DNA from: Candidatus Omnitrophota bacterium
Lineage (GTDB): Bacteria; Omnitrophota; Gorgyraeia; Duberdicusellales; 4484-171
Direction: 5' to 3'
Assembly: GCA_018818105.1 (NCBI GenBank)
Contig: JAHISK010000098.1
Location: forward strand, 1 to 63,069
Length of the DNA stretch: 63,069 nt
Of the stretch, positions 144 to 61,182 are shown piece by piece. The notes below the pieces were generated by a model. The model did not search any database. It had not been told where the DNA came from and saw only the letters and a list, made by a program, of their open reading frames with translations. A program made the position numbers and the translations under genes. Position 1 is the stretch's first letter. Every line of letters begins with the position of its first letter.

Positions 144-866
144 ATGAGAAGGAGGATTTGGGATAAAATAAACATAAAAAGGTATTTTTCCGAGATAAAA
201 GTGGGTATTTTTTTTCTTTTTGCTTTTGCTTTATTATTTTATACTCTTTTTTCTATAAAAGAGGTAAGTCTTTTTAAAGGAACGTATGTTATAAAGGTAG
301 AATTTGATTTTGCTGAAGGGTTGAGGGCCGCATCCCCTATAAGATTTTGCGGGGTTGATGTGGGAGAGGTAAAGAAAGTTGAAGTTATAGAGCGTGACGG
401 GCGGCCCGGCGTGTTAGTTTTTGCTAAGATTCAGAAAGGGGTACTTATCCCGGAGGAATCTTACTTTTTTATTAATAGTTTAAGTTTGTTTGGTGAAAAG
501 TATTTAGAAATAGCGCCTTCGGAGAAAGTGAAGAACTATGTTCGGGAAGGTCAGATTGTGGAAGGAATTTCGCCTATTCCTCTTTTTAATGTTTTTGCGA
601 CGTTTACTAAGACAATGAAAGAAGTTAGTGAGTTTGTTAAAGAGGGGAAACTTAAGCAGTCTTTTGAAAATACTCTATATAATTTGGAACAAGCCAGTAT
701 TCAGGTGCGTAAAATTGCCGAAGATATTGGTAATAAAGAAGGTACAGTAGGAAGGTTCCTTTATGATGATTCTTTATATCGAAAGACAGAAGACTTTGTT
801 GAAGATATAAAAGCTCATCCGTGGAAACTGTTGCATAAACCAAAAGTAACGAAAAAAAGAAGGTGA
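144..866 (+). CDS. mlaD: MlaD/Mce-domain periplasmic lipid-transport protein
   Basis: Track ORF 120..866. N-terminal TM helix (VGIFFLFAFALLFYTLF), then Mce-like core GLRAASPIRFCGVDVGEVKKVEV. ATG 144 follows an AGGGGG RBS, so it is preferred to GTG 120. Confidence 0.75.
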   Translation: MRRRIWDKINIKRYFSEIKVGIFFLFAFALLFYTLFSIKEVSLFKGTYVIKVEFDFAEGLRAASPIRFCGVDVGEVKKVEVIERDGRPGVLVFAKIQKGVLIPEESYFFINSLSLFGEKYLEIAPSEKVKNYVREGQIVEGISPIPLFNVFATFTKTMKEVSEFVKEGKLKQSFENTLYNLEQASIQVRKIAEDIGNKEGTVGRFLYDDSLYRKTEDFVEDIKAHPWKLLHKPKVTKKRR

Positions 867-989
867 TTCTGATTGGGACCAAAGGCTGAGAAAGAAAAAC
901 AATTTTAAATTTATCTTTGGGGATAGAAATTTTATTATTGCAATTTAAAATGTTAAATTGAGGTCTTTGGTCTGTAGTCTAGGAGAGAT

Positions 990-2327
990 ATGTTTTGTTG
1001 TTCCAATTGTGGGTATAAATCAGTTAAATGGTTAGGTAAATGTCCTTTTTGTCAGGGGTGGGAAAGTTTTTGTGAGGAGGCAGAAATTTCAAGTAGCGTC
1101 GGCGTTGTTGTTACTAAAGAAAAAGCCGCGCCTCAGTTACTTAAAGATATAGTTCATACGGATTACAAACGGATTAATGTTGGGATTGACGAATTTGACC
1201 GTATTTTAGGCGGAGGATTAGTGACGGGAGAAATAATCCTTTTAGGTGGAGAGCCTGGCGTTGGTAAATCTACGCTGCTTCTTGAGATTAGTTCTAAGTT
1301 GTCGAAAGTAGGTAAGACTTTGTATGTAAGCGCGGAAGAATCAGCGCAGCAAGTTGGGCTGCGGGCGAAGCGTCTGGACGCTAATCTCAATAATCTTTAT
1401 GTTGTAGGCGAAGATAATTTACAGACTATTTTTGGGTATATTAAGGACGATGGTTTTAAGTTTATTATGGTTGATTCAATTCAGGTGGTTTATTGTCCTC
1501 TTTATGAAGGCGTAAAGGGTAGTGTTTCGCAAATTCGCGGCAGTGCTGATTATCTTACTCAGATTGCTAAGTTTCATGGCGTCGTTATTATTATCGTTGG
1601 ACATGTTACTAAAGATGGATCAATCGCCGGTCCCAAGCTTCTGGAACATATTGTTGATTGTGTGTTTTATTTTGAAGGTGAAAATCTGTCGAATTATAGA
1701 ATCTTACGCGCCATGAAAAATAGGTTTGGGCCGACTGGAGATATAGCCGTGTTTGAGATGAACTCAAAAGGATTAAAAGAAGTTAAGCGGACTACCGATC
1801 TTTTTCTTCCTCATAAAGAGGCAGCGGTTTCTGGGAGTTGTGTTGTTTGTGTTATTGAAGGTTTACGTCCAATACTTATAGAATTACAGTCTTTGGTGAG
1901 TAAAGCTAATTTTGGGACAGTGAGAAGGCGAAGTATTGGTTTTGATTTTAACAGGTCTTCTTTGCTTATCGCGATAATTGAGAAGCGGCTTAAAATATCG
2001 TTATCCAGCGAAGACGTTTTTTTAAATGTTGCTGGTGGTCTTCGTGTAGTAGATCCGGCCGCGGATTTAGGCGTGGTTATGGCTATTATTTCTAGCTGTA
2101 AAGATAAAGAATTGCCGGCTAGTAGTGTATTTATCGCCGAAGTTGGGTTAGCGGGAGAGTTGAGGAAGGTAAATAATATTAATTTACGATTGAAGTCGGT
2201 TGAGCGCGGCGGATTTAAGAATTGCTTTATTCCGGAAAGTAATTTGAAAGAAATAGACAGTAATTTTAAGTTTAATATTGTTGGGTTTTCTTCGTTGAAG
2301 GATGTGGTTGAGGATGTATTTAAATAG
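990..2327 (+). CDS. radA: DNA repair protein RadA/Sms
   Basis: Zn finger CSNCGYKSVKWLGKCPFCQGW, Walker A GGEPGVGKST, KNRFGP motif, Lon-protease-like C-terminal domain. Confidence 0.95.
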   Translation: MFCCSNCGYKSVKWLGKCPFCQGWESFCEEAEISSSVGVVVTKEKAAPQLLKDIVHTDYKRINVGIDEFDRILGGGLVTGEIILLGGEPGVGKSTLLLEISSKLSKVGKTLYVSAEESAQQVGLRAKRLDANLNNLYVVGEDNLQTIFGYIKDDGFKFIMVDSIQVVYCPLYEGVKGSVSQIRGSADYLTQIAKFHGVVIIIVGHVTKDGSIAGPKLLEHIVDCVFYFEGENLSNYRILRAMKNRFGPTGDIAVFEMNSKGLKEVKRTTDLFLPHKEAAVSGSCVVCVIEGLRPILIELQSLVSKANFGTVRRRSIGFDFNRSSLLIAIIEKRLKISLSSEDVFLNVAGGLRVVDPAADLGVVMAIISSCKDKELPASSVFIAEVGLAGELRKVNNINLRLKSVERGGFKNCFIPESNLKEIDSNFKFNIVGFSSLKDVVEDVFK

Positions 2328-2500
2328 GTATAAGTTTTAAGTTGTAGGGTATGGTTAGTGGCAGACATAGTCGAAAAATTTATATTTTTGAACATTAGAA
2401 CATTTGAGCATTTGACCGCATTGGAGTTTTCTTTCTAATATCTAATGCTCCAATGTTCCAATGCTCTATTTTTGCGGAGCAAAAATAAGGAGGTATTGTT

Positions 2501-3475
2501 ATGCTGAGTCTTAACATTTTACGGGGGTGTTTTATTCTTATATGTACAGCGACAGGATATTCTTTCGGAGGGCAGGATCCGTATTTTTTAACTGTTGTAG
2601 GTTTTGCTGTTAGTGTGAGTATGGTAGTTTTTGAAACTTTGGCGAGAAAAATTTCTTTAAAAGGGCTATCTTCTACTGTTTTTGGTGTAATTTTAGGATT
2701 GATTTTAGCAAAAATATTTAGTGACGCGTTAAAGTTGTTCTCTATTCCGGATAATATTACTTATACGGTGAGGACATTTGTTACTCTTATATTTGTGTAT
2801 TTAGGATTGACTCTTGGGTTGAAAGGTCGCAGTGAGTTTAATTTAGTGATTCCGTACGTTAAGTTTAAAAAACAGGAGATAAGAGAGGAAGAAGTTGTTG
2901 TTGATACAAGCTGTATTATTGACGGCAGAATTGTTGATATAGTTAAAACAGGATTTCTTGAAGCGAGGTTTATTGTTCCCCGGTTTGTGTTAAATGAACT
3001 TCATGCTTTAGCTGATTCAACTGACCATATGAAACGCCAAAAAGGAAAACGCGGGATAGAAATTTTACATTCTTTAAAAAAAGAACCTAATATTGAGGTG
3101 AAAATTTCTGATGAAGAAATATCAGTTGTAAAGAGTGTGGATGAGAAAATCGTAAAATTAGCGCAAGATATGGGCGCGGCGATTTTAACCACAGATTATA
3201 ACTTAAACCGTATCGCTCAATTGCAAGGAACGAAAGTTTTAAACATTAACGATCTTGTTAATGCTCTTAAACCTACGTTTGTCGCGGGAGAACGGTTTTC
3301 TATAAAGCTGATGAAAGAAGGTAAAGAGCAGAATCAGGCAATAGGGTATTTAGAGGATGGGACGATGGTTGTAGTTGAAAACGCGAAGTGGCAAATTGGT
3401 AAGATGGTGAATATAGAAGTTATTTCTGTTTTACAGAGTCCTAGCGGCCGGATTGTATTTACTAAATTAGTATGA
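2501..3475 (+). CDS. Membrane-anchored PIN/TRAM domain protein (YacL-like)
   Basis: N-terminal TM helices, PIN-like core (VVVDTSCIIDGRI), TRAM-like C-terminus. radA-yacL-ispD-ispF order as in Bacillus. Confidence 0.8.
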   Translation: MLSLNILRGCFILICTATGYSFGGQDPYFLTVVGFAVSVSMVVFETLARKISLKGLSSTVFGVILGLILAKIFSDALKLFSIPDNITYTVRTFVTLIFVYLGLTLGLKGRSEFNLVIPYVKFKKQEIREEEVVVDTSCIIDGRIVDIVKTGFLEARFIVPRFVLNELHALADSTDHMKRQKGKRGIEILHSLKKEPNIEVKISDEEISVVKSVDEKIVKLAQDMGAAILTTDYNLNRIAQLQGTKVLNINDLVNALKPTFVAGERFSIKLMKEGKEQNQAIGYLEDGTMVVVENAKWQIGKMVNIEVISVLQSPSGRIVFTKLV

Positions 3476-4185
3476 AAGCATCTGCGGTAATAGTATGCGC
3501 TGGTTATGGTCGGCGGTTAGGTAAGATTGATAAGGCGGTGTTAGAGTTAGAAGGAAAACCGCTTTTTTATTACGCTGTTAAAACTTTTGCCGGAATTGAT
3601 GAAATAAAGGAAATAGTTTTAGTTTTACGGAAAAAACATTTAAGGGCGGCTAGAGTTTTAATTCCGCATAGTTATCATAACAAAAAAGTTTTTTTTGTTG
3701 AGGGAGGGGCTCGCCGGCAGGATTCTGTGTGTAAAGGATTAGCCGCGGTAAGTTCATCAGTGGATAATGTGCTTATCCATGATGGGGCCAGACCGTTTAT
3801 CAGTAATAGAGTTATTAAAAATATTTTAAATAAGCTTAAGAAGAGTGAAGCGGTAATCTGTGGCGTTAAAGTTCCTGATACGGTAAAAATAGTAGAAAAA
3901 GGAATTGTTAAAAAAACCGTGGAGAGGGATAACTTATATCTTATCCAAACGCCCCAGGGGTTTAGGCGGCAACTTATTTTAACCGCATATGAACAATTTG
4001 GCGCTAGTAATGTTACTGATGATTCATCTATGTTAGAAAGTTTAGGCTATAAAGTAGAGGTAGTCAAGGGTGATGAGCTTAATATGAAAATAACCTATCC
4101 GCAAGATATTGCGTTAGCAGAGGCGATTATAAAACGGGTCAAGGGTCAGGGGTCAAGGGGCAAGAAAACATTAAATATTATGTAG
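3472..4185 (+). CDS. ispD: 2-C-methyl-D-erythritol 4-phosphate cytidylyltransferase
   Basis: VIVCAGYGRRLG, GGARRQDSV and IHDGARPF motifs. The C-terminal tail RVKGQGSRGKKTLNIM is read from a GGGTCAA repeat, and the TAG stop lies in a TGTAGGG head. Confidence 0.9.
   Translation: MKASAVIVCAGYGRRLGKIDKAVLELEGKPLFYYAVKTFAGIDEIKEIVLVLRKKHLRAARVLIPHSYHNKKVFFVEGGARRQDSVCKGLAAVSSSVDNVLIHDGARPFISNRVIKNILNKLKKSEAVICGVKVPDTVKIVEKGIVKKTVERDNLYLIQTPQGFRRQLILTAYEQFGASNVTDDSSMLESLGYKVEVVKGDELNMKITYPQDIALAEAIIKRVKGQGSRGKKTLNIM
4136..4164 (+). repeat. GGGTCAA-type heptad array (4 units) inside the ispD 3' end
   Basis: GGGTCAA GGGTCAG GGGTCAA GGGGCAA G. Confidence 0.9.
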
Positions 4186-4193
4186 GGGAGGGT

Positions 4194-4269
4194 AGAAATT
4201 TTAAATTTACCAATTAGCATTTATGTAAGAGAAACAATATTTAGTAATTTAAAATGGTAAATGGTGAAT
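4194..4269. repeat. AAATTTACCA / TGGTAAATTT palindromic element, copy 1
   Basis: AGAAATTTTAAATTTACCAATT ... TTATGTAAGAGAAACAATATTTAGTAATTTAAAATGGTAAATGGTGAAT. Homologous to 58367-58510. Confidence 0.8.
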
Positions 4270-4287
4270 GGTGAATGGTGAATTTGA

Positions 4288-4764
4288 ATGAAAAATTATA
4301 AAGTTGGATTAGGGTTTGATGTTCATAAGTTTAGCAAGAAGAAAAAGGAGTTGGTGTTAGGCGGGGCGATAATACCTTTAGCAAGAGGGTTGGAAGCTGT
4401 TTCTGATGGAGATGTTCTTCTTCATGCTGTAACAGACGCTTTATGTGGGGCCGCCGGATTAGGTGATATCGGTGATTATTTTCCTCCTTCAAATAAAGAG
4501 TTGAAAGGTATTGATAGTAAAAAAATAGCAAAGTTCATTTTTAAAAAAATAGTAAATAGATTTGAAATCATAAATATGGATATAACGATTATTGCTGATA
4601 AACCGCCGTTAGTTTTTCATAAAAAGGAAATCATGAAATCGTTGATAAACATATTCTATATATCAGCGATTAATTTAAAGATAAAGTCTAAAGAAGGATT
4701 GAATGTTTTAGGGGGCAAAGACGCTATTTCGTGTTTAGCCATGGTGTTGGTGAAACAAATATGA
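4288..4764 (+). CDS. ispF: 2-C-methyl-D-erythritol 2,4-cyclodiphosphate synthase
   Basis: GLGFDVHKF, SDGDVLLHA and GDIGDYFP motifs. Confidence 0.92.
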   Translation: MKNYKVGLGFDVHKFSKKKKELVLGGAIIPLARGLEAVSDGDVLLHAVTDALCGAAGLGDIGDYFPPSNKELKGIDSKKIAKFIFKKIVNRFEIINMDITIIADKPPLVFHKKEIMKSLINIFYISAINLKIKSKEGLNVLGGKDAISCLAMVLVKQI

Positions 4765-4799
4765 ATAGCGTATGGCGGATAGCGTTTAGCGTATAGAGA
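4765..4799 (+). repeat. ATAGCGT heptad array (5 units)
   Basis: ATAGCGT ATGGCGG ATAGCGT TTAGCGT ATAGAGA. Confidence 0.85.
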
Positions 4800-4820
4800 A
4801 AAAAACGAAATAATATTATT

Positions 4821-6272
4821 ATGTTGAAAATATATAATACATTAACTAGAAAAAAAGAAGAGTTTAAACCACAAGATCCGAAAGAAGTAAAAATGTATAC
4901 TTGCGGGGTTACGGTTTATGACGATTGTCATATCGGCCATGGTCGGTCATTATATATCTTTGAGGTTATGCGTAAGTACTTGAATTATAAAGGAAAGAAA
5001 GAAGGATATAAAGTTAAATTTGTAAGAAATATTACTGATGTTGACGATAAAATAATTAATAAGGCGCGTCAGTTCGCCGCGGAAAAATCTTTAGTGTTAA
5101 GGGATGCTTTTAATGAGATTAGAACAACATATATAGATAGATATTACCAGGACTTGAAGTTGCTGCAAATACCGCCTGCCGATTCTGAGCCGCTAGCTAC
5201 AGAAAACATAGATGATATGATTAAGTTTATCAGCGTTTTGATTGAAAAAGGGTTTGCCTATGAGGCATTAGGTAATGTTTATTTTACGGTAAGAAGACTT
5301 AAGTCGTACGGTAAATTATCGGGGAAAAAGATTGATGATTTGTTTGAATCGGTAAGGATTGATTCCGACCCTCTAAAAAAAGATCCTCTTGATTTTGCTC
5401 TTTGGAAAACGGCGAAAAACGATGAACCTTATTGGGAAAGTCCCTGGGGACGGGGGCGGCCCGGATGGCATATTGAATGCTCAGTTATGAGCCTGAAATA
5501 CTTAAATACGGATACTTTAGATATTCATGGAGGAGGAAGAGATTTGATTTTCCCTCATCATGAAAACGAAGTTGCTCAAGCGCAAGCTAAGACACAGAAA
5601 CCGTTCGCGAATTATTGGATACATCACGGATTAATAACTATAAATAGTCAAAAAATGGCTAAATCGTTAGGGAATTTTGTGACTTTGGTAGAGGTGTTGG
5701 GGAAATATCCTGCTGATGTTTTGAAGCTGTTTTATTTGCAGGCGCAATATGCAAGTTCTATAGACTTTTCCTGGGAGAAGATGGAGGAAGCTAAAAAAGC
5801 GTATGAGCGTATTGATATTTTAATAAATAAAGTGGAACGGGAACTTGCTTGCGGTAATTCTAAATTAAACGCGAAAGAATATGATGACATAAAAGAAAAT
5901 AAAGATAAGTTCATTGAAGTTATGGATGATGATTTTAATATGCCCAAAGGTTTAGCTGTATTATTTGATATCGTTGCTCAGTGTAATAAACTAATGGAAA
6001 GCAGTGATGAAGAGAAAGTTTTGAAGTTGAGTTATGCTGTCGGAATAATAAGTGAATTGGCCGCGATATTTGGGTTAACTTTTCATAGGGATGGCAGTAT
6101 TGATGATATTTCCGATGAACAGATTAAGGAGTTCATTGAGCAAAGAAATCAGGCTAGAAAAGCAAAGAATTATGCTGAGTCCGATAAAATTCGGAAAGGA
6201 TTAGAAGAAAAGGGTGTCATTTTAGAGGATGAAAAGGAGAAAACTGTATGGCGAAGAAAAATAGGGAGTTAA
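4821..6272 (+). CDS. cysS: Cysteine--tRNA ligase
   Basis: HIGH (CHIGHGRS), KMSKS variant (KMAKSLGN), GWHIECS. Confidence 0.97.
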   Translation: MLKIYNTLTRKKEEFKPQDPKEVKMYTCGVTVYDDCHIGHGRSLYIFEVMRKYLNYKGKKEGYKVKFVRNITDVDDKIINKARQFAAEKSLVLRDAFNEIRTTYIDRYYQDLKLLQIPPADSEPLATENIDDMIKFISVLIEKGFAYEALGNVYFTVRRLKSYGKLSGKKIDDLFESVRIDSDPLKKDPLDFALWKTAKNDEPYWESPWGRGRPGWHIECSVMSLKYLNTDTLDIHGGGRDLIFPHHENEVAQAQAKTQKPFANYWIHHGLITINSQKMAKSLGNFVTLVEVLGKYPADVLKLFYLQAQYASSIDFSWEKMEEAKKAYERIDILINKVERELACGNSKLNAKEYDDIKENKDKFIEVMDDDFNMPKGLAVLFDIVAQCNKLMESSDEEKVLKLSYAVGIISELAAIFGLTFHRDGSIDDISDEQIKEFIEQRNQARKAKNYAESDKIRKGLEEKGVILEDEKEKTVWRRKIGS

Positions 6273-6928
6273 TGATATCTGGTAGGGGACGGGCTTGCTC
6301 CGTCCCGTTAATAAAAATAAAGAAAAAAGCGGTTTTTATTACGGTTGAAGGATTGGAAGGCAGCGGTAAAAGTAGTGTTATTGAATTTATGGAAAAACTT
6401 TTTAAACAGAAAAAGTTGTCGGTTAAGGTGTTCCGTGAACCGGGATCAACGTCTGTGGGTGAAAAGATACGCCAGATTCTTTTAGATAATAAAAATAAAG
6501 AGTTATCGGTTCATACGGAATTGCTGTTGTATTTAGCGGCGAGAACTCAGCTTATTGAAGAGAAGCTAATAAAAGCGTTGGCTAAGTATGCCGTGGTTGT
6601 TTGCGACCGGTTTTTTGATTCTACTCTTGTGTATCAAGGGTTTGCTTTGGGTTTAGGTGAAATTGTTAATAAATCTGTGGAGATGTTTTCATTAGGCATT
6701 AAACCTGATTTTACTATATACTTAGACGTTGCGCCTAAACAAGGTTTAGCAAGAATAAAAAATAAGGACAGAATAGAAGAAAGATCTATTGTTTTTCATC
6801 AGCGGTTAAGGAAAGGATATTTACAGTTAGCCAAAAATAATCCTAAAAGAATAAACGTTATTAATGCCACAGTATCCTTAGATCAAATCTTTGATAATGT
6901 AGAGAAGATTATTGATGAAATTTTGTAG
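6272..6928 (+). CDS. tmk: Thymidylate kinase
   Basis: P-loop EGLEGSGKSS and DRFFDST. ATG 6272 overlaps the cysS stop (TAATG). Codons 4-12 (GRGRACSVP) are a GTAG hairpin repeat. The track start is 6248. Confidence 0.88.
   Translation: MISGRGRACSVPLIKIKKKAVFITVEGLEGSGKSSVIEFMEKLFKQKKLSVKVFREPGSTSVGEKIRQILLDNKNKELSVHTELLLYLAARTQLIEEKLIKALAKYAVVVCDRFFDSTLVYQGFALGLGEIVNKSVEMFSLGIKPDFTIYLDVAPKQGLARIKNKDRIEERSIVFHQRLRKGYLQLAKNNPKRINVINATVSLDQIFDNVEKIIDEIL
6282..6307 (+). repeat. GTAG-headed hairpin inside the tmk 5' coding region
   Basis: GTAGGGGACGGGCTTGCTCCGTCCCG, near-identical to 6925-6950. Confidence 0.85.
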
Positions 6929-6950
6929 GGGACGGGCTTGCCTCGTCCCG
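6925..6950 (+). repeat. GTAG-headed hairpin supplying the tmk TAG stop
   Basis: GTAGGGGACGGGCTTGCCTCGTCCCG. Confidence 0.85.
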
Positions 6951-7014
6951 TAATAATGTCTTTTCTTATTGTTTCGTCGGGGGGTAGGTTTGACCCTTGC
7001 CCCTATAGTTAATT

Positions 7015-7800
7015 ATGAACCAAAACAAAATCTTAGAATATTTTTCTCTTTTAATCAGTCATAATCTTTTGGGTTCTTCCTATCTATTTATTGGTAATAA
7101 TTCGACAATTGTTAAGGATGTTATAAAACTTATTAACTGTAAAGATAATGATTTGTATTGCGGTCAATGTTGGGATTGTAAAAAAATAGAAGATTTAAGT
7201 CATCCTGACATTTTCAACGTTAAACCCAGTCCGCTCTCAATAAAGATTGAAAGTATCCGGGAAAGTATACGGTTTCTTTCTTTAAAGAGTTTTTGCTTGC
7301 GGCGTAAGGTTATTCTTTTAGAAGAAGCAGAAAGCCTCAGTAGTGAAGCTTCCAGCGCTTTTCTTAAAACATTAGAAGAGCCTCCGGCTAATTCATTTAT
7401 TGCTATTTGTACGTCGAAATTGGAAGGAATGCTTCCAACGATAATCTCTCGGTGCAGGAAGATCTTTCTTCCGTTTTATGAGGGAGGTGTTAGTCAGGAT
7501 TATTTAATTCCGCAAATTCGCGATTTTTTAAGAGGGGTTAACGTGAAATTTAAGAATCGGCGTGAATTTGCCGGATTTTTATGGATTTTGATTGTTATTT
7601 TTAGAGATAAATTAGTTGCTCAAACTGCCCTGTCAAATAATCGGTTGCTTAAAAATAGAGAATATGAGATAATTCCTAAGCTGTATAATCCCGCGCAAAT
7701 TTACTATATTTTAAAGGATATTTTGAAGATTTATGGTGCTTATAACAGCGTTAATGAAAATTTAGCCCTAAATATGATAAGACTTAGTATGGAGAAGTAG
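7015..7800 (+). CDS. holB: DNA polymerase III delta' subunit
   Basis: Clamp-loader-like protein with Zn module CGQCWDCKK and an SRC-type ISRCRKI motif. tmk-holB-ricT synteny. Confidence 0.7.
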   Translation: MNQNKILEYFSLLISHNLLGSSYLFIGNNSTIVKDVIKLINCKDNDLYCGQCWDCKKIEDLSHPDIFNVKPSPLSIKIESIRESIRFLSLKSFCLRRKVILLEEAESLSSEASSAFLKTLEEPPANSFIAICTSKLEGMLPTIISRCRKIFLPFYEGGVSQDYLIPQIRDFLRGVNVKFKNRREFAGFLWILIVIFRDKLVAQTALSNNRLLKNREYEIIPKLYNPAQIYYILKDILKIYGAYNSVNENLALNMIRLSMEK

Positions 7801-7927
7801 ATAGATATTTATTGAAATTTATAGAGATTAGCTCACTACGTTCGCGAAATTTGTAGAGATTTATTGTGGCTAAATTAGTATAACGATTAATTTCTATAAG
7901 TTTCTATGAATTTCAATAAATATCTAT
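7801..7927. repeat. 127-bp palindromic element exactly filling the holB-ricT spacer
   Basis: Perfect 19-nt inverted termini ATAGATATTTATTGAAATT (7801-7819) / AATTTCAATAAATATCTAT (7909-7927). Confidence 0.8.
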
Positions 7928-7948
7928 ATTATTGGAGGTTAATATAAG

Positions 7949-8755
7949 ATGAAAATAGCATTAATAAGGTTAAGAGAAGCTGGCCAGCTTATGAGTTATA
8001 GAGGCGCTGATGATATTGAAGTTAATGACTACGTTATTGTGGAAGCGGATAGAGGAGTTGATTATGGTGAGGTTGTTGAGGTTGGTGAAACTGAAGCTAT
8101 CATTCAGGAGGATGAGTCTTGCCCTAAAGAGAAAAGTTCGTTAAAAAATATCCTGCGACGTGTTACGCCTCAGGATTCACAGCAAATAAAAGATAATCAA
8201 CGTCAGGCAAAAGACTCCTTGAAGCTGTGTTCGCGAAAAATTCGAGAATATAAGTTGGCTATGAAGCTGGTAGATGCTGAGTATTCCTTTGATAGAAAGA
8301 AGATTGTTTTTTATTTTACTTCTGACGGACGGATAGATTTTCGTGAAGTTGTTAAGGATTTAGCAAAGATATTTAAAATAAGAATAGAAATGCGCCAGAT
8401 TGGAGTAAGGGATGAAGCGCGGCTTTTTGGCGGCGTTGGGTCGTGCGGTCAACCGTTATGTTGTGTAAGGTTTCTTAAAAGCTTTGAACCGGTAAGTATG
8501 AAAATGGCTAAAACGCAGAGGTTGCCGTTAACTTCTGGGAAAATTTCAGGGATTTGCGGACGGCTTATGTGTTGCTTGTTTTATGAGTATAAGACATATC
8601 GTGATTTGGCAAAGGGTCTTCCTAAAGAAGGGCAAACCATAGAAACCCCGCAGGGAAAAGGTAAAGTTATTTCGGTTAATGTGTTGAAACGGACAGTTTG
8701 TGTTGATTTAGGAGATGGTAAGATTGAAAAGATTTCCTTTGATAAGCCTGAATAA
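7949..8755 (+). CDS. ricT: PSP1-domain protein (RicT/YaaT-like)
   Basis: PSP1-like core with Cys clusters GSCGQPLCCVRFL and GICGRLMCCL. Sits after holB, as in Bacillus. Confidence 0.85.
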   Translation: MKIALIRLREAGQLMSYRGADDIEVNDYVIVEADRGVDYGEVVEVGETEAIIQEDESCPKEKSSLKNILRRVTPQDSQQIKDNQRQAKDSLKLCSRKIREYKLAMKLVDAEYSFDRKKIVFYFTSDGRIDFREVVKDLAKIFKIRIEMRQIGVRDEARLFGGVGSCGQPLCCVRFLKSFEPVSMKMAKTQRLPLTSGKISGICGRLMCCLFYEYKTYRDLAKGLPKEGQTIETPQGKGKVISVNVLKRTVCVDLGDGKIEKISFDKPE

Positions 8756-8761
8756 TTAAAT

Positions 8762-8840
8762 AGATTGAAGATGGGAGATGACAGATGGCAGATGAAATAT
8801 TCTTTATCTCCAATCTCCAATCTGCAATCCGCAATCTATT
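8762..8840. repeat. Inverted pair of heptad arrays
   Basis: AGATTGA AGATGGG AGATGAC AGATGGC AGATGAA ... ATCTCCA ATCTCCA ATCTGCA ATCCGCA ATCTATT. Confidence 0.85.
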
Positions 8841-8843
8841 AAT

Positions 8844-10370
8844 ATGAATAAGTTTTATATTACTACGCCAATTTATTATGTTAATGCTAGCCCGCATATC
8901 GGTCATGCTTATACCAGCATAATTTGTGATTGTCTTGCCAGGTATAAACGAGCGGCAGGTGATCAAGTTTATTATCTTACCGGCACAGACGAACATGGAG
9001 AAAAGGTCGCTTCTGCCGCGGCTGGCGCCGGTCAAGAAATACAGGCTTTTGTTGATAACGTGAAGGGAAATTTCGATGATTTATGGCAAAAATTAAATAT
9101 TACGTATGATTTTTTTATTAGAACAACTCAAAGTGACCATAAAGAAGTGGTAAAGAAGGTAATCACTGCCCTTGGTGAAAAAGGGGATATTTATAAAACA
9201 AAGTATCAGGGGTTTTACTGTATGCCTTGTGAATCATTTTGGACGCCGACGCAAGTGAAAGAGGCCTGCGGGGTGTGTTCTTTATGTAAGAGAGAAGTTG
9301 GGCCGATAGAAGAGGAAAACTATTTTTTTAGATTATCTAAATACTCGCAGTGGCTTAAGAAATATTTAGAAGATAATCCATCGTTCATTCAGCCAAAGAT
9401 TCGGTATAATGAAGTCATGGGATTTTTAGATAATAATGTGTTAGCTGATTTGTGTATTTCCCGTCCGAAATCAAGAGTTAGCTGGGGCATAGAGTTTCCC
9501 TTGGATAGTGATTATGTTGTGTATGTATGGTTTGACGCTTTATTGAATTATATAAGCGCTGTAGGTTATGACGTCGATAGGGATAAGTTCAATCAATGGT
9601 GGCCGCCGGATATTCAGCTTATTGGTAAAGACATATTACGGCATCACGCTATTTTCTGGCCGATAATGCTGAAGGCGTTAGGGGTTAGTTTGCCAAAAGT
9701 TATTTTTGCCCATGGGTGGTGGAAAGTAGACGAAGAAAAGATGTCTAAATCTAAAGGTAATATCGTAAATCCGTATACGTTAATCGAAGATGTTGGTGTT
9801 GACGCGTTACGTTATTTTCTATTACGGGAGATTGCTCCTGGAGCTGACGGTAATTTTTCCCATCAAGCAGTAATTAATCGTCTAAACAGCGATTTAGCTA
9901 ATGATTTAGGTAATTTAGTTTATCGTACGCTTAATATGGCAGAAAAATATTTTGAAGGTAAAGTTTCATCGAAAGACGGTGTGATTCCTTTTGAGTTTAA
10001 AAATGCCTTTGACGTTTTAGGTAAGGGATACGCTGGCTGTATGGAAAAGTTAGATTTTGGCGGCGCGCTTGATTTTGTGTTTGATTGTATCAAAGTGATG
10101 AATAAATATATAGAGGATACAAAACCCTGGGGGTTATGGAAGGAAAAGAAAATTGATGAGTTAGGAGAGTTTCTTTACGCTCTTTTGGAAGGTATACGAA
10201 TTGTCGCGGGATATCTGTACTCTTTTATGCCCCAAACTTGCCACTCTGTATTTAGGCAGTTAGGAGTAGATAAAGAGGTAGTTAATTTTTCAGAGTGGAA
10301 ATGGTCGCGAAAAAAGGTTTATTCAGTAAAAAAAGAAAAGCCGTTGTTTCCTAGGATAGAAATAGAATAA
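8844..10370 (+). CDS. metG: Methionine--tRNA ligase
   Basis: HIGH (PHIGHAYT), KMSKS, Zn knuckle CMPCESFW...CSLCKRE. Confidence 0.97.
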   Translation: MNKFYITTPIYYVNASPHIGHAYTSIICDCLARYKRAAGDQVYYLTGTDEHGEKVASAAAGAGQEIQAFVDNVKGNFDDLWQKLNITYDFFIRTTQSDHKEVVKKVITALGEKGDIYKTKYQGFYCMPCESFWTPTQVKEACGVCSLCKREVGPIEEENYFFRLSKYSQWLKKYLEDNPSFIQPKIRYNEVMGFLDNNVLADLCISRPKSRVSWGIEFPLDSDYVVYVWFDALLNYISAVGYDVDRDKFNQWWPPDIQLIGKDILRHHAIFWPIMLKALGVSLPKVIFAHGWWKVDEEKMSKSKGNIVNPYTLIEDVGVDALRYFLLREIAPGADGNFSHQAVINRLNSDLANDLGNLVYRTLNMAEKYFEGKVSSKDGVIPFEFKNAFDVLGKGYAGCMEKLDFGGALDFVFDCIKVMNKYIEDTKPWGLWKEKKIDELGEFLYALLEGIRIVAGYLYSFMPQTCHSVFRQLGVDKEVVNFSEWKWSRKKVYSVKKEKPLFPRIEIE

Positions 10371-10389
10371 ATAATAGATAACAATAATT

Positions 10390-10513
10390 GTAGGGACGCC
10401 GCTTGTCTGCGCCCGATAGTTTTAATTCATAAATATGATTTGGCCTAATGATATGTTCATCCAATTGTTGATAATTTTATATTATTACGGGCGTAGACAA
10501 GCGACGCCCCTAC
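10390..10513 (-). mobile_element. MITE/BIME-like element, copy A (124 bp)
   Basis: 26-nt GC-rich inverted termini GTAGGGACGCCGCTTGTCTGCGCCCG / CGGGCGTAGACAAGCGACGCCCCTAC flank an AT-rich core. The core is the reverse complement of copies B and D. Confidence 0.85.
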
Positions 10514-15094: not shown

Positions 15095-15247
15095 GTATAT
15101 GGTTTTTTAGGTTAAGTAGTTTGATAAAGGTCAAGAGGCCGGTAGGGTAGTTGGGTAAGGGTTAAGTGTATAATCATTAACTACCTGACTGTTAAACTAA
15201 ATCGGTATATTGACCCAAGCCCAATAACTTTTGACAAGGGGTTATAC

Positions 15248-15922: not shown

Positions 15923-16017
15923 TTGTTAGTATATAGTATTTAGTGGAGAGGATATAGAAAAAATTTATTTGAAAATTTAAAATGGTAATTGGTAAATGGT
16001 AAATTTAAAATGGAAAA
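15913..16017 (+). repeat. 15 phase-locked heptads spanning the tsaB stop to the alr start
   Basis: TAGTGTT TAGTTGT TAGTATA TAGTATT TAGTGGA ... TGGTAAT TGGTAAA TGGTAAA TTTAAAA TGGAAAA. Confidence 0.85.
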
Positions 16018-25521: not shown

Positions 25522-25529
25522 TAGAGAAA

Positions 25530-25551
25530 GGGTCAAGGGTCAAGGGTCAAG
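25530..25551 (+). repeat. GGGTCAA heptad array (3 units)
   Basis: GGGTCAA x3, followed 14 nt later by a GTAG hairpin. Confidence 0.9.
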
Positions 25552-25565
25552 AAAATTTAAAATAT

Positions 25566-25591
25566 GTAGGGGAGGGTTTGTAACCCTCCCG
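25566..25591 (+). repeat. GTAG-headed hairpin
   Basis: GTAGGGGAGGGTTTGTAACCCTCCCG, identical to 47727-47752. Confidence 0.85.
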
Positions 25592-37480: not shown

Positions 37481-37660
37481 AAAATTACAATAAACAACAT
37501 CCAAATTACAAATAAATCACAATAGACAATATACAAATGGAGAAAATAGATAAAGAGAAAGAATAATATATATTTGATAAATCGAGATTAATTTTGTTTT
37601 CGTTTGTATATTTGGAATTGTGTATTGTTTGTAATTTGTTTATTGGCTATTGTTTATTTT
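37481..37660. repeat. 180-nt imperfect palindrome built of A/C-rich heptads and their complement
   Basis: The left arm has CAA every 7 nt (AAATTAC AATAAAC AACATCC AAATTAC...). The right arm is ATTGTGT ATTGTTT GTAATTT GTTTATT GGCTATT GTTTATT. Confidence 0.8.
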
Positions 37661-40970: not shown

Positions 40971-41107
40971 TCGTTAGTGAATAGTATTTAGTCGTTAGTA
41001 TATAGTATTTAGTAAGAAGATAGAAGACGGAAGATTGGAGAAGGAACATGGGTCAAGGGTCAGGGGGCAAGGGGCAAGGAAGAATAAGAATAAAGAATTA
41101 TGTAGGG
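40961..41107 (+). repeat. 21 consecutive phase-locked heptads (TAGTNNN x8, AAGANNG-type, GTCAAGG/GGCAAGG x4, AAGAATA x3, TGTAGGG)
   Basis: Parsed by hand with no indel. See findings. Confidence 0.9.
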
Positions 41108-41126
41108 ACAGGTCGTGACCTGTCCG
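41102..41126 (+). repeat. GTAG-headed hairpin
   Basis: GTAGGGACAGGTCGTGACCTGTCCG. Confidence 0.8.
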
Positions 41127-44034: not shown

Positions 44035-44065
44035 AGGGGCAAGGGATAGGAATTTTAAATTTCAA

Positions 44066-47058: not shown

Positions 47059-47712
47059 ATGAATAATTTAATTGTATTTGATTCAATACCGATTTCTGTG
47101 CCAAAGGATAGAGTGTATAAGCGGCTGGGGTATCAGCGGGATAAAACGCGTCTTTCTTCTCGACAAAGAATTGAAATTGAACAGTATATTCAAGATTCGC
47201 TTAAGTTTATTGATTTGAAAGGAGTCGCGAAAAGGATCGTTATAAAAGAAAAGAATAATTTTGAAATTATTTTTGCCCAAGACAGTACTTTTGAAAGTAA
47301 GCATTTAGCGGCATTACTTAAAGACTGCTGTGAAGTTATTTTTATGGGAGTTACTGCGAGCAAGGAGATTGTTCAGCAGATACAAATGAATTCTTCCCAG
47401 GGTGATTTGACTAAAGCGGTAGTTTTTGACGCTGTGGCTAGTGAGATGACAGACGTATCTTTAGATTGGATTATGAATTATATGAATCAGCAGCTATGTC
47501 GGGAAAATAAAACGATTACAAGACGAAGATTTTCTCCCGGATATAGCGACTTCATTTTAGAAAATCAGAGAGTATTGTATAGCGCTCTTAAATTAGATAA
47601 GTTAGGAGTTACGATAACTAGCGATTGTATTCTTGTTCCTGAGAAATCAGTTATTGCGGTGGCGGGAATACTCGAAAGAGTCAAGGGTCAAGGAACAAGG
47701 GTCAAGGAATAG
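47059..47712 (+). CDS. Stand-alone methionine synthase reactivation (AdoMet-binding) domain protein
   Basis: RRFSPGYSDF...LVPEKSVIAVAGI resembles the MetH activation domain. The tail RVKGQGTRVKE is read from a GGGTCAA repeat. Confidence 0.7.
   Translation: MNNLIVFDSIPISVPKDRVYKRLGYQRDKTRLSSRQRIEIEQYIQDSLKFIDLKGVAKRIVIKEKNNFEIIFAQDSTFESKHLAALLKDCCEVIFMGVTASKEIVQQIQMNSSQGDLTKAVVFDAVASEMTDVSLDWIMNYMNQQLCRENKTITRRRFSPGYSDFILENQRVLYSALKLDKLGVTITSDCILVPEKSVIAVAGILERVKGQGTRVKE
47680..47707 (+). repeat. GTCAAGG-type heptad array inside the 3' end of ORF 47059..47712
   Basis: GTCAAGG GTCAAGG AACAAGG GTCAAGG. Confidence 0.9.
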
Positions 47713-47726
47713 AATATATAAATTTT

Positions 47727-47752
47727 GTAGGGGAGGGTTTGTAACCCTCCCG
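47727..47752 (+). repeat. GTAG-headed hairpin
   Basis: GTAGGGGAGGGTTTGTAACCCTCCCG. Confidence 0.85.
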
Positions 47753-53197: not shown

Positions 53198-53207
53198 TAT
53201 GCTAGTT

Positions 53208-53331
53208 GTAGGGGGCGTCGCTTGCCTACGCCCGTAATAATATAAAATTATTAACAATTGGTTGAATATCCTTATGACGAATCATATTCATAGTAAATTA
53301 ATAATCGGGCGCAGGCAAGCGACGCCCCTAC
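53208..53331 (+). mobile_element. MITE/BIME-like element, copy D (124 bp)
   Basis: Same termini, and the core is collinear with copy B. Confidence 0.85.
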
Positions 53332-53360
53332 GATAAATTACGTTAACGATAGGAGGTAAC

Positions 53361-53816: not shown

Positions 53817-53825
53817 AATAATAAA

Positions 53826-54027
53826 CTCGAAATACGAATATCGAAATTCGAAACAACATTAAAATTATAATGACAGAAATTATAAACATAGACTAAATAA
53901 TTTTTTTTATAATTATAATTTTGATCATTCGAACAAGACTGAAGATTATAAACATATTTCTTCGTATTTCGACATTTGATATTCGAATTTTCTTAGTTTG
54001 TTTCGTATTTCGGATTTCGTGCTTCGG
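53826..54027. repeat. Inverted heptad arrays CGAAATA-type / TATTTCG-type
   Basis: CGAAATA CGAATAT CGAAATT CGAAACA versus TTCGTAT TTCGACA TTTGATA TTCGAAT and TGTTTCG TATTTCG GATTTCG TGCTTCG. Confidence 0.85.
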
Positions 54028-54048
54028 ATTTATATTAGGGGAGGAGAT

Positions 54049-56528: not shown

Positions 56529-56708
56529 AAACTCTAAACACTAAATCCTAAACACTAAATAAACCCAAATTATAAAAGCACAAAATATAAAACAATATAA
56601 TTTAATAAAAAAATCCATGTTTAATCGAACTTTGTTTTGGTTCTGGGTGAGTTTGGAGTTTGATATTTTAGATTTATTTAGAGTTTAGTGTTTAGGATTT
56701 AGGGTTTT
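56529..56708. repeat. Inverted heptad arrays AAACACT-type / AGTGTTT-type
   Basis: AAACTCT AAACACT AAATCCT AAACACT AAATAAA versus GAGTTTA GTGTTTA GGATTTA GGGTTTT. The arms share a 19-nt complementary core. Confidence 0.85.
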
Positions 56709-57893: not shown

Positions 57894-58025
57894 GTAGGGG
57901 CGTCGCTTGCCTGCGCCCGATTATTAATTATAAATATATCATGAATATAATTTGGCATAATGGTATATTCAACCATATATTAATAATTTTATATTATTAC
58001 GGGCGTAGGCAAGCGACGCCCCTAC
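57894..58025 (-). mobile_element. MITE/BIME-like element, copy E (132 bp)
   Basis: Same termini, with the core in the orientation of copy A. Lies between divergent genes. Confidence 0.85.
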
Positions 58026-58341: not shown

Positions 58342-58366
58342 TAAATATATATAGGGTCAAGGGACA

Positions 58367-58510
58367 GAAATTTTAAATTTACCATTACAAATTTACCATT
58401 TTGAATTGAGGGATAAAAGAAAAGAATCAAATAAAACATGTTAAAATTATTTCTTATGTAAGAGAAACAATATCTAACAATTTAAAATGGTAAATGGTAA
58501 ATTTAAAATG
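58367..58510. repeat. AAATTTACCA / TGGTAAATTT palindromic element, copy 2 (with about 55-nt internal insertion)
   Basis: AGAAATTTTAAATTTACCATT ... TTATGTAAGAGAAACAATATCTAACAATTTAAAATGGTAAATGGTAAAT. Confidence 0.8.
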
Positions 58511-58515
58511 ATAAT

Positions 58516-60269: not shown

Positions 60270-60335
60270 GGGTATTATAATTTTTTAGTGGTTATGAAGT
60301 TATGCCGGGCGTATGCGATTTAAAAGACAAGATGG

Positions 60336-60461
60336 CACTGTTGCGAAATACCCCAAAAGTGTCATCCCTGCGAAAGCGGGGATCCAAAACATTAATGGAA
60401 TCAATGGATTCTGGATTCCCGCTTTCGCGGGAATGATAGAAAACGTTATTTCGCAACAGCG
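60336..60461. mobile_element. MITE with 15-nt TIRs and 8-bp direct flanking repeat
   Basis: TIRs are CACTGTTGCGAAATA / TATTTCGCAACAGCG. Internal inverted pair is GTCATCCCTGCGAAAGCGGGGATCC / GGATTCCCGCTTTCGCGGGAATGA. CAAGATGG occurs at 60328-60335 and 60463-60470. Confidence 0.8.
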
Positions 60462-60531
60462 CCAAGATGGATATTACCGTTACTATGGGCAGTTATTCTC
60501 AGGGTAAAGAAGGTTGGTAAAAGAGGGAACT

Positions 60532-60906
60532 TTAGGAATTAGTTTTATTATGTGCTATGGATGAGATGAATTCTTTAAGCTTTTCAAAATCTTCAGATAG
60601 AATTTGTTGAAATTCTATTCCCGTATCAAAAAGAAGCCGTCTTTGTAGAGAGTCGTTTTTTCTTACTCCTACCCAGATAATGCGTCCTTGACAAATTAGA
60701 GGTTCTTTTTTTATTCCGTATATAGTAAGAGTAATTAAGGTATTAGGTTTTAAAGCTTCAGAAATAGCGATTCTTAAGCCGCTGGCGCTGATATCTTCTG
60801 TATAGGTGGGAAATATTAAGTTTTGGAACGTACGTACAGATACCTCACATGAAAAGGTCACTCTTACGAATTTTCTTCGTTCTGAGGCATTCCAGATCAT
60901 TTTCAT
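60532..60906 (-). CDS. PilZ-domain protein
   Basis: ERRKFVRV ... TEDISASGLRI (RxxxR / DxSxxG). Confidence 0.8.
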   Translation of the reverse strand: MKMIWNASERRKFVRVTFSCEVSVRTFQNLIFPTYTEDISASGLRIAISEALKPNTLITLTIYGIKKEPLICQGRIIWVGVRKNDSLQRRLLFDTGIEFQQILSEDFEKLKEFISSIAHNKTNS

Positions 60907-61032
60907 CTCCCCTTGTATGTAACTTTACACTTAAATTGTAACATATAAATAAGGACTTTTCAACATTTTAATTTATAACATATTGTTACGTATGTATTTA
61001 TGAATAAACTTGTTTAGCCATGAAGTCTCTTT

Positions 61033-61081
61033 TTTCTGCTTTTCGTTTTTTGCTGAAAGCTGATAGTAGATAGCGGACAGC
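61033..61081 (+). repeat. NNNNNGC heptad array (7 units)
   Basis: TTTCTGC TTTTCGT TTTTTGC TGAAAGC TGATAGT AGATAGC GGACAGC. Confidence 0.8.
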
Positions 61082-61182
61082 TTTATTTAAGGTTTACCCA
61101 GTTGACCAATAAATAAGTGTTACCTAAGAAGATACTCAAAAATAGATTTAAGAATATATCTTTTTATGGTATTATAATTTTT

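Follow-up and report, generated by a model that had tools for sequence, protein, structure and literature searches.

The intergenic spacers of a 63,069-nt stretch of DNA from a Candidatus Omnitrophota bacterium (hereafter the window) contain short runs of degenerate 7-nt units, and the question raised by this locus is whether these heptad arrays are a real property of the spacers, whether each spacer uses a word of its own, and by which process such arrays could have come to lie between genes. The window, at ~36% GC and with a strong G>C skew, codes for housekeeping functions, with almost all of its genes on the + strand. Its DNA is contig k141_1502180 of the ENA assembly ERZ27247128 and was found to be 100% identical in GCA_043811225.1, a metagenome-assembled genome (MAG) held at NCBI, and in two Logan run assemblies. 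Since these four independent assemblies agree at 100%, and JGI contigs carry the same modules, an assembly artefact was ruled out.

The arrays were called with a strict detector, for which 80% or more of the lag comparisons over 21 nt had to match, and block dinucleotide shuffles served as the control. Nine period-7 arrays were found in the window against 0.1 in the shuffles, and every other period from 4 to 21 returned 0–3 arrays. A relaxed detector raised the count to 16 (0.6 in shuffles), 14 of which were located in the non-coding 10.5% of the window, that is, in spacer or gene-end DNA. Autocorrelation over all 53 spacers gave a lag-7 match of 0.343 compared with 0.292 (z = 9.4) and harmonics at lag 14 (z = 5.4) and lag 21 (z = 2.9), and the coding DNA of the window showed period 3 alone. 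When the spacers were taken singly, P was below 0.01 in 8 and below 0.02 in about 14 of them. The initial annotation had listed a series of array sites with their periods. Each of these intervals showed a raised match at the proposed lag (P < 0.01 each) with the proposed period as the best one, and Tandem Repeats Finder (TRF) independently reported most of them. The lag match was 0.54–1.00 at individual arrays over a background of ~0.29, and 0.44–0.51 across three long spans that include cores (37481–37660, 53826–54027 and 56529–56708). In these spans the periodicity was confined to two arms and the cores were non-periodic, except that the arms at 56529 extend inward. At two of the sites, 15150–15180 and 61033–61081, the lag-7 match was raised but weak, and the per-spacer test was not significant. 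AT-rich low complexity as the source of the signal was ruled out by the mono- and dinucleotide shuffles, which the signal far exceeded, and by the comparison with other periods; the period-7 arrays are real.

The arrays are not, as had been proposed, the default building block of the intergenic DNA. Only ~16 of the 53 spacers carry one, and a tally over several detectors assigned ~950 of the 6,652 spacer nucleotides (roughly 14%) to them, so that heptad arrays are one major building block of the spacers. The period, which had been described as conserved, is dominated by 7, but arms with units of 8 nt (2387–2466), 10 nt (7801–7928), 14 nt and 21 nt were also recovered by TRF and arm pairing, and period 8 is enriched in related loci.

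Modules, hairpin arms and palindromes at gene junctions

The words of the arrays recur between spacers. The T module is a 21-nt superunit, TAGTATT-TAGTCGT-TAGTATA, present at 15909–15957, 23599–23635 and 40957–41014; the stretches 23599–23632 and 40980–41013 are 100% identical over 34 nt and the third copy is 94% identical. The G module, (GGGTCAA)n, forms arrays at 4136, 25528, 41047 and 47676 and short copies at 58355 and 44035. At four of these six sites it is followed by an AT spacer and then by a GTAG hairpin, which is identical at 27 of 27 positions between 25565–25591 and 47726–47752. In the A module, AATGGTR arrays (4252, 15971 and 58479) form the right arm of an element whose left arm (AAATTTTAAATTTACC) and interior (TTATGTAAGAGAAACAATAT) are shared too. 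Two A elements have a 45-nt stretch in common with 93% identity (4221–4265 and 58454–58498), the left arm at 4194–4223 contains 19 nt that are 100% identical to 58366–58384, and the element is present in 2–4 copies in the window. The earlier view that each spacer has its own word therefore did not hold, since GGGTCAA occurs at 5–6 sites, AATGGTR at three and TAGTNNN at three, with the order of the variant units kept. Judged from these copies, the arrays are modules of several dispersed families and not one-off words.

The words of 146 arrays from the window, the relative L004 and 31 related metagenome loci (the compared loci are numbered with L) reduced to 70 canonical words, among which TAGCG, GCGTA, TAGTA and ATAC cores are several-fold over-represented; the array words are not arbitrary. 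The motif (TAG-N4)3, which provides a stop codon in all three frames, occurred 17 times in the window compared with 0.69 expected, and 15 of these occurrences were on the sense strand. That period 7 dominates across many words is in keeping with a common bias in how arrays are generated, of the kind proposed for heptanucleotide repeats of bacteria. The initial annotation had argued for a common mechanism in place of a single dispersed family; the shared period of the 70 words agrees with the former, but several dispersed families apply as well. The 8-nt arrays have a conserved CCARTT-type core that alternates with two hypervariable positions, and this two-position variation exceeded that of a uniform-decay simulation passed through the same detector (P = 1e-4). 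In the 7-nt arrays the position-specific excess over the same simulation was not significant (P = 0.1). Canonical G-quadruplex (G4) motifs, with four G3 tracts and loops of at most 7 nt, were found at two places only in the window, 4136–4160 and 41050–41074. Both are sense-strand G arrays and lie no more than ~80 nt from the point where the upstream open reading frame (ORF) ends. G4 formation as a general property of G arrays was rejected, as only two of the six copies qualify and those at 25528, 47676, 58355 and 44035 do not.

Many arrays are arms of hairpins. The 8-nt case had been noted before and stands, but the pairing of many other arrays had been missed. Inverted arm pairs were found in at least seven spacers (2387/2441, 4194/4258, 8759/8803, 37487/37594, 53821/53998, 56529/56652 and 58368/58479), with arms of 26–60 nt that are 71–96% complementary and cores of 6–150 nt that are non-periodic and mostly AT-rich. 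The resulting elements of 80–215 nt are short (<300 nt), non-coding and bounded by terminal inverted repeats, resembling MITEs (miniature inverted-repeat transposable elements). Because the arms are periodic, several pairing registers are available to each pair. For the 56529 pair, a unit-wise complement with the order of the units preserved was considered and dropped, since a 7-nt register shift with 96% complementarity explains it. Fold z averaged -2.7 over the 43 spacers with a length of 50 nt or more, with z < -3 in 17 of them and z < -2 in 24. Of 150 neighbouring array pairs, 13 have complementary words, including T and its complement T' in L024, L027, L044 and L050. A search of the window with Rfam at gathering thresholds returned no match, a permissive run gave three sub-threshold matches to microRNA (miRNA) precursors on long hairpins, and there are no tRNAs in the window.

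The modules lie close to translation signals. T and TAGCGTA arrays begin at or over stop codons, and the stops of tsaB and mnmA are inside T arrays. G arrays encode the last 12–16 residues of IspD and of the ORF at 47059–47712; the homology of IspD to most relatives stops at residue 221–224 of 237, ahead of the G-array tail. A start codon or Shine-Dalgarno site follows the end of A arrays and right arms at a distance of 0–4 nt, and in three spacers (8759–8840, 53821–54033 and 58370–58510) the hairpin bases are 3–5 nt from the stop and 0–4 nt from the start or Shine-Dalgarno site. The T-sense arm is found after stop codons and the T-antisense arm before starts or Shine-Dalgarno sites. In 16 loci the orientation of the T module agrees with the local GC skew and in 15 it is opposite, and relative to the flanking genes both orientations occur; a strand-specific T orientation, RNA-level or replication-linked, was rejected, as no simple strand rule holds. 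In the AATGGTR arrays at 4252–4287, 15971–16017 and 58479–58514, GGTGA or GGTAA recurs every 7 nt and is followed by AAATTTNAA and then by ATG; we take this motif to be a Shine-Dalgarno-like complement of the 16S 3' end. The genes behind these three arrays are without a canonical GGAGG, whereas the other window genes have one.

The share of spacer DNA taken up by palindromes with a GTAG head is about equal to that of the arrays. Repetitive extragenic palindromic (REP) sequences and the hairpin-forming REP doublets called REPINs are recognized by a GC-rich imperfect palindrome with a GTAG-type head, and the palindromes of the window occur accordingly as solo copies and as inverted doublets with near-invariant arms. 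The REPIN-like or MITE-like doublets of ~125–130 nt are located at 10389–10515, 27085–27212, 33118–33243, 53207–53332 and 57894–58025, and in L054 at 6963–7101. Their ends are a near-invariant 28-nt GC-rich inverted sequence, GTAGGGGCGyCGCTTGyCTrCGCCCG, around an AT-rich core, and each arm is a small hairpin in itself. The six doublets align at 79% mean column identity, and their spacers have fold z values of -4.5 to -8.6. Solo REP-type hairpins such as GTAGGGGAGGGTTTGTAACCCTCCC were found at 6925–6960, 25563–25591, 41100–41126, 47724–47752 and 4181–4193, several of them following G arrays. At 4183–4185 and 6926–6928 the GTAG head provides, with its TAG, the stop codon of the upstream gene. 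A gene for the REP-associated tyrosine transposase RAYT (Y1 transposase) was not found within the 63-kb window.

Gain, loss and sharing of modules between genomes

The relatives identified by MetG are Candidatus Omnitrophota MAGs, some of which were entered under the name 'uncultured Planctomycetia'. At 74% identity the complete chromosome CP070797.1 (L003) comes nearest, ahead of the remaining ones at 61–67% (L004, 67%). From mlaD to alr, nine Omnitrophota-type relatives have the same gene order as the window. The 16 shared junctions (867–16009) total 1,400 nt in the window, ~74 nt in L003, ~292 nt in L004 (14 junctions) and ~364 nt in L005. Many gene pairs that are separated in the window overlap in L003, and in relatives the pairs overlap or lie 1–40 nt apart; the junctions of the close relative measure 0–40 nt, with one of 115 nt. 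In the window genome the spacers have been generally enlarged by repeats. No arrays were found in the 21.5 kb of L003 that were compared. In L004, 19.7 kb contain 9 arrays where 0.3 would be expected, with the words TAGCGTA, TAGCTCT, ATCTAGT and CGCTATN. They are located in other spacers than those of the window, and one of them is common to L005 at the orthologous site. Since arrays are missing in L003 and placed elsewhere in L004, they are gained and lost on the timescale of genera and not inherited with the operon.

The arrays are also abundant outside these relatives and are not confined to the window. A 24-mer of the T module (AGTYGTTAGTATATAGTATTTAGT) matched 38 JGI metagenome stretches, of which 31 are non-redundant (196 kb, GC 0.30–0.47). 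Megablast of the 38 stretches against the window revealed no other shared DNA, with the exception of one 133-nt palindromic element (L037). The 31 loci contain 121 period-7 arrays compared with 4.3 expected, 111 of them outside ORFs, and 43 period-8 arrays compared with 3.7 expected. Genes that the T-matching loci have in common with the window are distant: IspF is 34–36% identical, against 55–76% for Omnitrophota relatives, and an IF-2B-family protein 49%, against 58–82%. The T module sits there among CCAGTYN, CCAATCN, TAGTCGA and ATACAAG arrays and GTAG hairpins, the complementary T' arm is often 100–240 nt from T, and the neighbours are housekeeping genes. A phage origin was rejected, as the T 24-mer had 0 matches in IMG/VR. 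The sign of the skew tracks the coding strand in the related metagenome loci (r = 0.76); in the window and most of L022–L059 the G>C skew is +0.15 to +0.37 per 2 kb and follows gene orientation.

One contig, Ga0180007_10000956 (L037 and L054), shares with the window the T module, the GTAG doublet (83–97%), the arm pair 53821/53998 (89–100%), the 37594 arm (95%) and the 133-nt palindromic element (97%). The shared elements adjoin different genes, and the type II secretion system (T2SS) proteins of this contig are only 32–53% identical to those of the window. In both arm pairs compared between the window and L054, the arms have been preserved, unlike the cores, which vary in sequence and length. 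Between L022 and L046, one pairwise alignment with nearly identical flanks showed length differences of ~8 and ~15 nt inside arrays, that is, of about one and two units. The arrays covered by the four same-population assemblies showed no length variation. L057 is ~99% identical to L058 and L059 rightwards from a CCAATCNN array, through the T module and for at least ~400 nt beyond, and the left side is unrelated; the boundary at the array is either a rearrangement or the edge of a mobile segment, or else a metagenome assembly chimera. Contigs of the same population end in or within ~30 nt of arrays (L015 starts at 23608, L020 starts at 56673, L017 ends at 47737 and L002 starts at 4186). As independent short-read contigs break there, the arrays are suggested to be multi-copy in the genome and to break assemblies.

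Possible origin of the modules

We consider it probable, though well short of certain, that the arrays are dispersed modular repeat families, in which slippage in unit steps creates the arrays and alters their length, and whole modules are copied to new junctions. A module is a run of 3–8 degenerate 7-nt units (sometimes of 8, 10, 14 or 21 nt), and families of such modules would have colonised gene junctions. The modules occur in a solo form, on or across a stop codon or just ahead of a start codon, and in a paired form, with complementary arms around a core and the whole spacer folding into a long imperfect hairpin. Combined with each other and with GTAG-headed GC-rich palindromes, they form mosaics. 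Slipped-strand mispairing or unequal exchange in unit steps would build and resize the arrays, a generator suggested by the literature on long simple sequence repeats (LSSRs) of heptamers. By a second process complete modules, the order of their variant units being kept, would be copied to new junctions within and between genomes, presumably by transposition or recombination. Quasipalindrome template switching copies changes from one arm into the other, and the complementarity of the arms would be kept in this way. The modules would be mostly selfish or neutral and tolerated as fold-away or all-frame stop elements beside translation signals.

Several observations weigh against this proposal. 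The unannotated ORFs of the window gave no Pfam match to a transposase, and none was found in the 25 commonest of 200 families (135 ORFs) from the related loci, where a single one would escape. Inspection of the T contexts and of the window copies gave no consistent target-site duplication, and no pair of empty and filled sites was recovered. The breakpoint between L057 and L058 could be an assembly chimera, and the L022/L046 gaps of 8 and 15 nt in that one alignment are not exact multiples of 7. Since the four same-population assemblies are identical across the arrays, these are not hypervariable on short timescales. The near-identity between genomes could reflect purifying selection on a function instead of recent transfer, and the two-position variation of the 8-nt arrays hints at constraint on a core motif. 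Proteins of 217 aa beside arrays were rejected as candidate mobilisers, being mutually unrelated and without a Pfam match.

That hint of constraint bears on the idea that the arrays are cis-acting sites read, on DNA or RNA, by an oligomeric protein with a footprint of 7–8 nt per subunit. Such readers exist: on double-stranded DNA the ribbon-helix-helix omega repressor/centromere protein of pSM19035 binds heptad runs, direct or inverted, and MetJ and ParG bind 8-bp units; on RNA HutP binds (UAG-N4)3, and cold-shock and S1 domains have ~7-nt sites. The excess of (TAG-N4)3, the over-represented TAGCG and TAGTA cores and the 8-nt core pattern beyond uniform decay would all be expected of protein-read sites. 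So would arms far better conserved than the neighbouring proteins and the cores, and arrays that abut stops and Shine-Dalgarno or start sites with T in sense after the former and in antisense before the latter; candidate RNA-binding readers are discussed in PMC4679880. We nevertheless think it unlikely, as the number of words is too high for one reader, orthologous junctions do not keep the arrays and the compared part of the closest relative has none, and the 7-nt arrays have no significant position-specific signal after ascertainment matching. In addition, Pfam matches brought up no candidate protein in the unannotated ORFs of the window or in the 25 commonest families of the related loci. 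A broader version, which is rather doubtful but has a little more room, is an undescribed mobile or protein-read element in which the 7- or 8-nt period is the footprint of one protein subunit, the words are co-evolving specificities, and the element spreads horizontally among Omnitrophota and other sediment or groundwater bacteria. Such spread would lead to 24–42-nt modules that are identical or near-identical in genomes with 32–53% protein identity.

Selection could also act on structures, with G4s at transcript 3' ends and hairpins serving as terminators, processing sites or stabilisers, or bringing stop and start close for translational coupling. The only two canonical G4 motifs of the window are sense-strand G arrays close to where the upstream ORF ends, PMC4692102 describes a GGGNATC class that shares these features, more than half of the spacers tested fold with z < -2, and the hairpin bases in three spacers nearly touch stop and start in gene pairs that overlap or lie 1–40 nt apart in relatives. 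However, the four G3 tracts are kept in a minority of the G copies, solo arrays have no partner arm, and no T-run followed the hairpins in the copies read by eye (no terminator scan was run). Reading the alignment of window and L054 arms gave no clear compensatory changes, with too few differences for a test, and the closeness of hairpin bases to genes is trivially expected where the element is the whole spacer. Structure as the cause of the arrays appears improbable to us; selected structures may possibly be secondary effects. Local replication slippage alone, in which each spacer grows its own array without copying and polymerase geometry sets the shared period, seems very improbable. It agrees with the dominance of period 7 across the canonical words, with the differences of ~1 and ~2 units between close strains and with the heptamer bias of bacterial LSSRs described in PMC4679880 and PMC4692102. 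It is contradicted by degenerate arrays with the same order of variant units at 3–6 sites in 63 kb and by modules 89–100% identical in unrelated gene contexts of other genomes, and complementary arm pairs are not made by simple slippage.

Features of the window and comparison with known systems

The arrays, arms and associated hairpins are collected in the table. The hairpin at 7801–7928 is a non-heptad member of the same arm-pair architecture.

Table. Period-7 and related repeat features of the window, with the evidence for each
Feature	Position	Strand	Evidence and remarks
Left arm, 8-nt units (TTTGAACA type)	2387..2415	+	TRF period 8, 3.6 copies; 85% complementary to 2441–2466
Right arm, 8-nt units (AATGCTCC type), complement of 2390–2415	2441..2466	+	lag-8 match 0.87
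G module, GGGTCAA x4, in the IspD C-terminal tail; canonical G4 motif	4136..4164	+	TRF, strict detector
A-module left arm (AAATTTTAAATTTACC...)	4194..4223	+	pairs with 4258–4285; spacer fold z = -4.4
A-module right arm, AATGGTR x5, abuts ATG at 4288	4252..4287	+	TRF, detector, lag match
TAGCGTA-type array, begins at the base following the ispF stop	4765..4799	+	91% over 32 nt to L023:405–436; word also in L004 and L005
Hairpin, arms of ~10-nt period (AATTTCTATA)	7801..7928	+	TRF period 10; arms 96% complementary; fold z = -6.5
Left arm, AGATGNN x5, 4 nt past PSP1 stop	8759..8796	+	74% complementary over 38 nt to 8803–8840; 79–89% in 24- and 18-nt registers
Right arm, ATCTCCA/CCAATCT x5, ends 4 nt before metG ATG	8803..8840	+	strict detector, arm pairing; CCAATC word also in L026 and L057–L059
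Weak period-7 stretch	15150..15180	+	lag-7 match 0.54, P = 0.008; per-spacer test not significant
T module including tsaB stop codon	15909..15957	+	TRF period 21; 94% to other two copies; (TAG-N4)3
A-type array (AAATGGT) running into alr start at 16010	15971..16017	+	TRF, lag match
T module directly after T2SSE stop codon	23599..23635	+	34 nt 100% identical to 40980–41013
G module, GGGTCAA x3, AT spacer, GTAG-headed hairpin GGGAGGGTTTGTAACCCTCCC	25528..25591	+	strict detector; hairpin identity
Left arm, ACAAWNN-type heptads	37487..37546	+	60-nt arms 73% complementary; lag-7 match 0.57; fold z = -4.4
Right arm, TTGTNNN-type heptads	37594..37660	+	37604–37645 95% to L054:559–600, different gene context
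T module, 2.7 copies of the 21-nt superunit, including mnmA stop codon	40957..41014	+	TRF, spacer comparison, (TAG-N4)3
Purine-rich 14-nt repeat, G module (GGGTCAA/GGGGCAA x4, G4 motif), GTAG-headed hairpin GGACAGGTCGTGACCTGTCC	41016..41126	+	TRF
Short G and A-left-arm remnant (GGGGCAAGGGATAGGAATTTTAAATTT) before ATG at 44066	44035..44062	+	89% to 58353–58380
G module coding last ~12 residues of ORF 47059–47712, then GTAG hairpin	47676..47752	+	TRF, spacer comparison
Left arm, TCGAAAT-type heptads, 5 nt after CBS-gene stop	53821..53856	+	36-nt arms 78% complementary; 91% identical to L054:7928–7962
Right arm, ATTTCGN-type, ends 4 nt before glgP Shine-Dalgarno site	53998..54033	+	89% to L054:8049–8085
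Left arm, AAACACT-type, 3 nt after glgP stop	56529..56584	+	24 nt pair at 96% in 7-nt-shifted register
Right arm, TTTAGNG-type	56652..56707	+	strict detector, arm pairing; spacer fold z = -3.7
Two G units, then A left arm (ATTTTAAATTTACC x2.7, 14-nt units)	58353..58407	+	TRF, lag match
A-module right arm (AAATGGT), ends at dinB-like ATG at 58516	58479..58514	+	spacer fold z = -6.0
Weak degenerate period-7 stretch, GCTGAWA type	61033..61081	+	lag-7 match 0.64; per-spacer test not significant

Other repeats were noticed beside these features. The 133-nt palindromic element (…GTCATCCCTGCGAAAGCGGGGATCC…GGATTCCCGCTTTCGCGGGAATGA…) at 60332–60464 is 97% identical to L037:4131–4263, part of a groundwater contig otherwise unrelated to the window. 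The 64-aa ORF called over it (60313–60507) is probably spurious, and Rfam gave a sub-threshold match to a miRNA precursor alone. A perfect palindrome of ~21–22 bp (ATATACAACATATAAGTTGTA … TACAACTTATATGTTGTATAT) at 41935–41990 (fold z = -5.7) is directly upstream of an AbiEii-family gene, which is followed by a helix-turn-helix (HTH) gene; it is probably the operator of a toxin-antitoxin-like pair. At 18277–18305 a perfect 12-nt tandem repeat, ATTAATAGGGTA x2.4, occupies part of a 319-nt spacer upstream of a gene for an 876-aa TIG-domain protein. The public gene set contains a 29-aa ORF at 41048–41137, which crosses a G array with its hairpin and is likely a false call, and another small ORF (59 aa) at 24855–25034. 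The repeat modules inflate small-ORF calls in this MAG.

Intergenic heptamer repeats have been noted for decades, in cyanobacteria, Xanthomonas, Burkholderia and Beggiatoaceae, and to our knowledge neither a mechanism nor a function has been agreed upon for them. The lineage of the window offers an unusually clean case, with a compact relative genome, many short arrays that can be sorted into modules, conserved arms with drifting cores, and modules common to genomes that share no further DNA except one palindromic element. The choice between selfish copy-paste DNA and protein-read signals thereby becomes testable in an Omnitrophota lineage. Furthermore, arrays and hairpins of this kind yield spurious ORFs, C-terminal extensions and contig breaks, and so affect the annotation and assembly of MAGs.

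In the passages of PMC4679880 and PMC4692102 on bacterial heptanucleotide LSSRs, slippage with a heptamer bias is proposed (Mrazek 2007), and heterocystous cyanobacteria (Calothrix) are listed as carriers of heptamer repeats (PMC4692102). The arrays of the window resemble LSSRs in the dominant 7-nt unit, the strongly intergenic location, several words per genome, patchy presence among close relatives and the slippage proposed for both. They differ in being short (3–8 units) and degenerate, in forming modules of fixed order that are often paired as hairpin arms, in their words (TAGTNNN, TAGCGTA, GGGTCAA and AATGGTR, not CCCCAGT and the like) and in their Omnitrophota-type host. The heptamers of heterocystous cyanobacteria are named short tandemly repeated repetitive (STRR) sequences, with the words CCCCAGT, TTGGTCA and CAACAGT, none of which is present in the 40 commonest of the 70 canonical words. 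A full-text literature search for heptamer repeats in Omnitrophota or Omnitrophica found nothing.

The TAACTGA repeats of marine Beggiatoaceae, cyanobacteria and Bacteroidetes occur in 2–6 copies a few nucleotides from start codons (MacGregor 2015, PMC4679880). The same study described mixed heptamers in one spacer, 7-nt indels, relatives with short repeat-free spacers, contig breaks, and a patchy distribution across phyla that suggests horizontal spread by a vehicle not known (PMC4679880). The present arrays are alike in occurring in both orientations and near starts, in mixing heptamers, in the short repeat-free spacers of relatives and in the contig breaks. They are unlike in having many words where one dominates there, and common inverted arm pairs where one indirect repeat was described; the word TAACTGA was not seen among the array words. 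The GGGNATC/GGGGAYT quadruplex heptamers of Xanthomonas and Nostoc are four-unit G3N4 repeats on the sense strand after stop codons (Rehm 2015, PMC4692102). Most G copies of the window are similarly placed at or within ~10 nt of the upstream stop ('within 50 bp' there), and the copy at 41047 lies ~80 nt downstream. The word is GGGTCAA here, the canonical G4 motif, as predicted from sequence, occurs in the two copies given above only, and a GTAG-headed hairpin follows most of the G arrays.

REP sequences, bacterial interspersed mosaic elements (BIMEs) and MITEs such as Correia elements are short non-coding hairpin elements dispersed at junctions, mosaic and differing among relatives; REPINs in particular are treated in PMC3116915. 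The elements of the window are likewise hairpin-forming, located at gene junctions, mosaic and lineage-variable, and GTAG palindromes and 125–130-nt doublets co-occur with the arrays. Like MITEs, they have several copies at non-orthologous sites, as seen for the A element and for the 53821–54033 and 37487–37660 arms in L054. Their arms, however, are tandem 7-nt repeats and not a unique palindrome, no target-site duplication was seen around the T contexts or the window copies, and neither RAYT nor another transposase was found in the 63-kb window or in the 25 commonest families of the related loci. The sites of omega, MetJ and ParG provide a resemblance only: runs of 7- or 8-bp units, direct and inverted, near gene starts and with a conserved core and variable flanks. 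In those systems one word is repeated, on plasmids or within one regulon, and the binding protein is known, in contrast to the dozens of chromosomal words here. The heptad arrays of the window belong to the known class of intergenic heptamer repeats that includes LSSR/STRR, TAACTGA and GGGNATC. What is new is the host lineage, the modules of fixed order shared between genomes, and the frequent use of heptad arrays as arms of MITE- or REPIN-like hairpins that form mosaics with GTAG palindromes.

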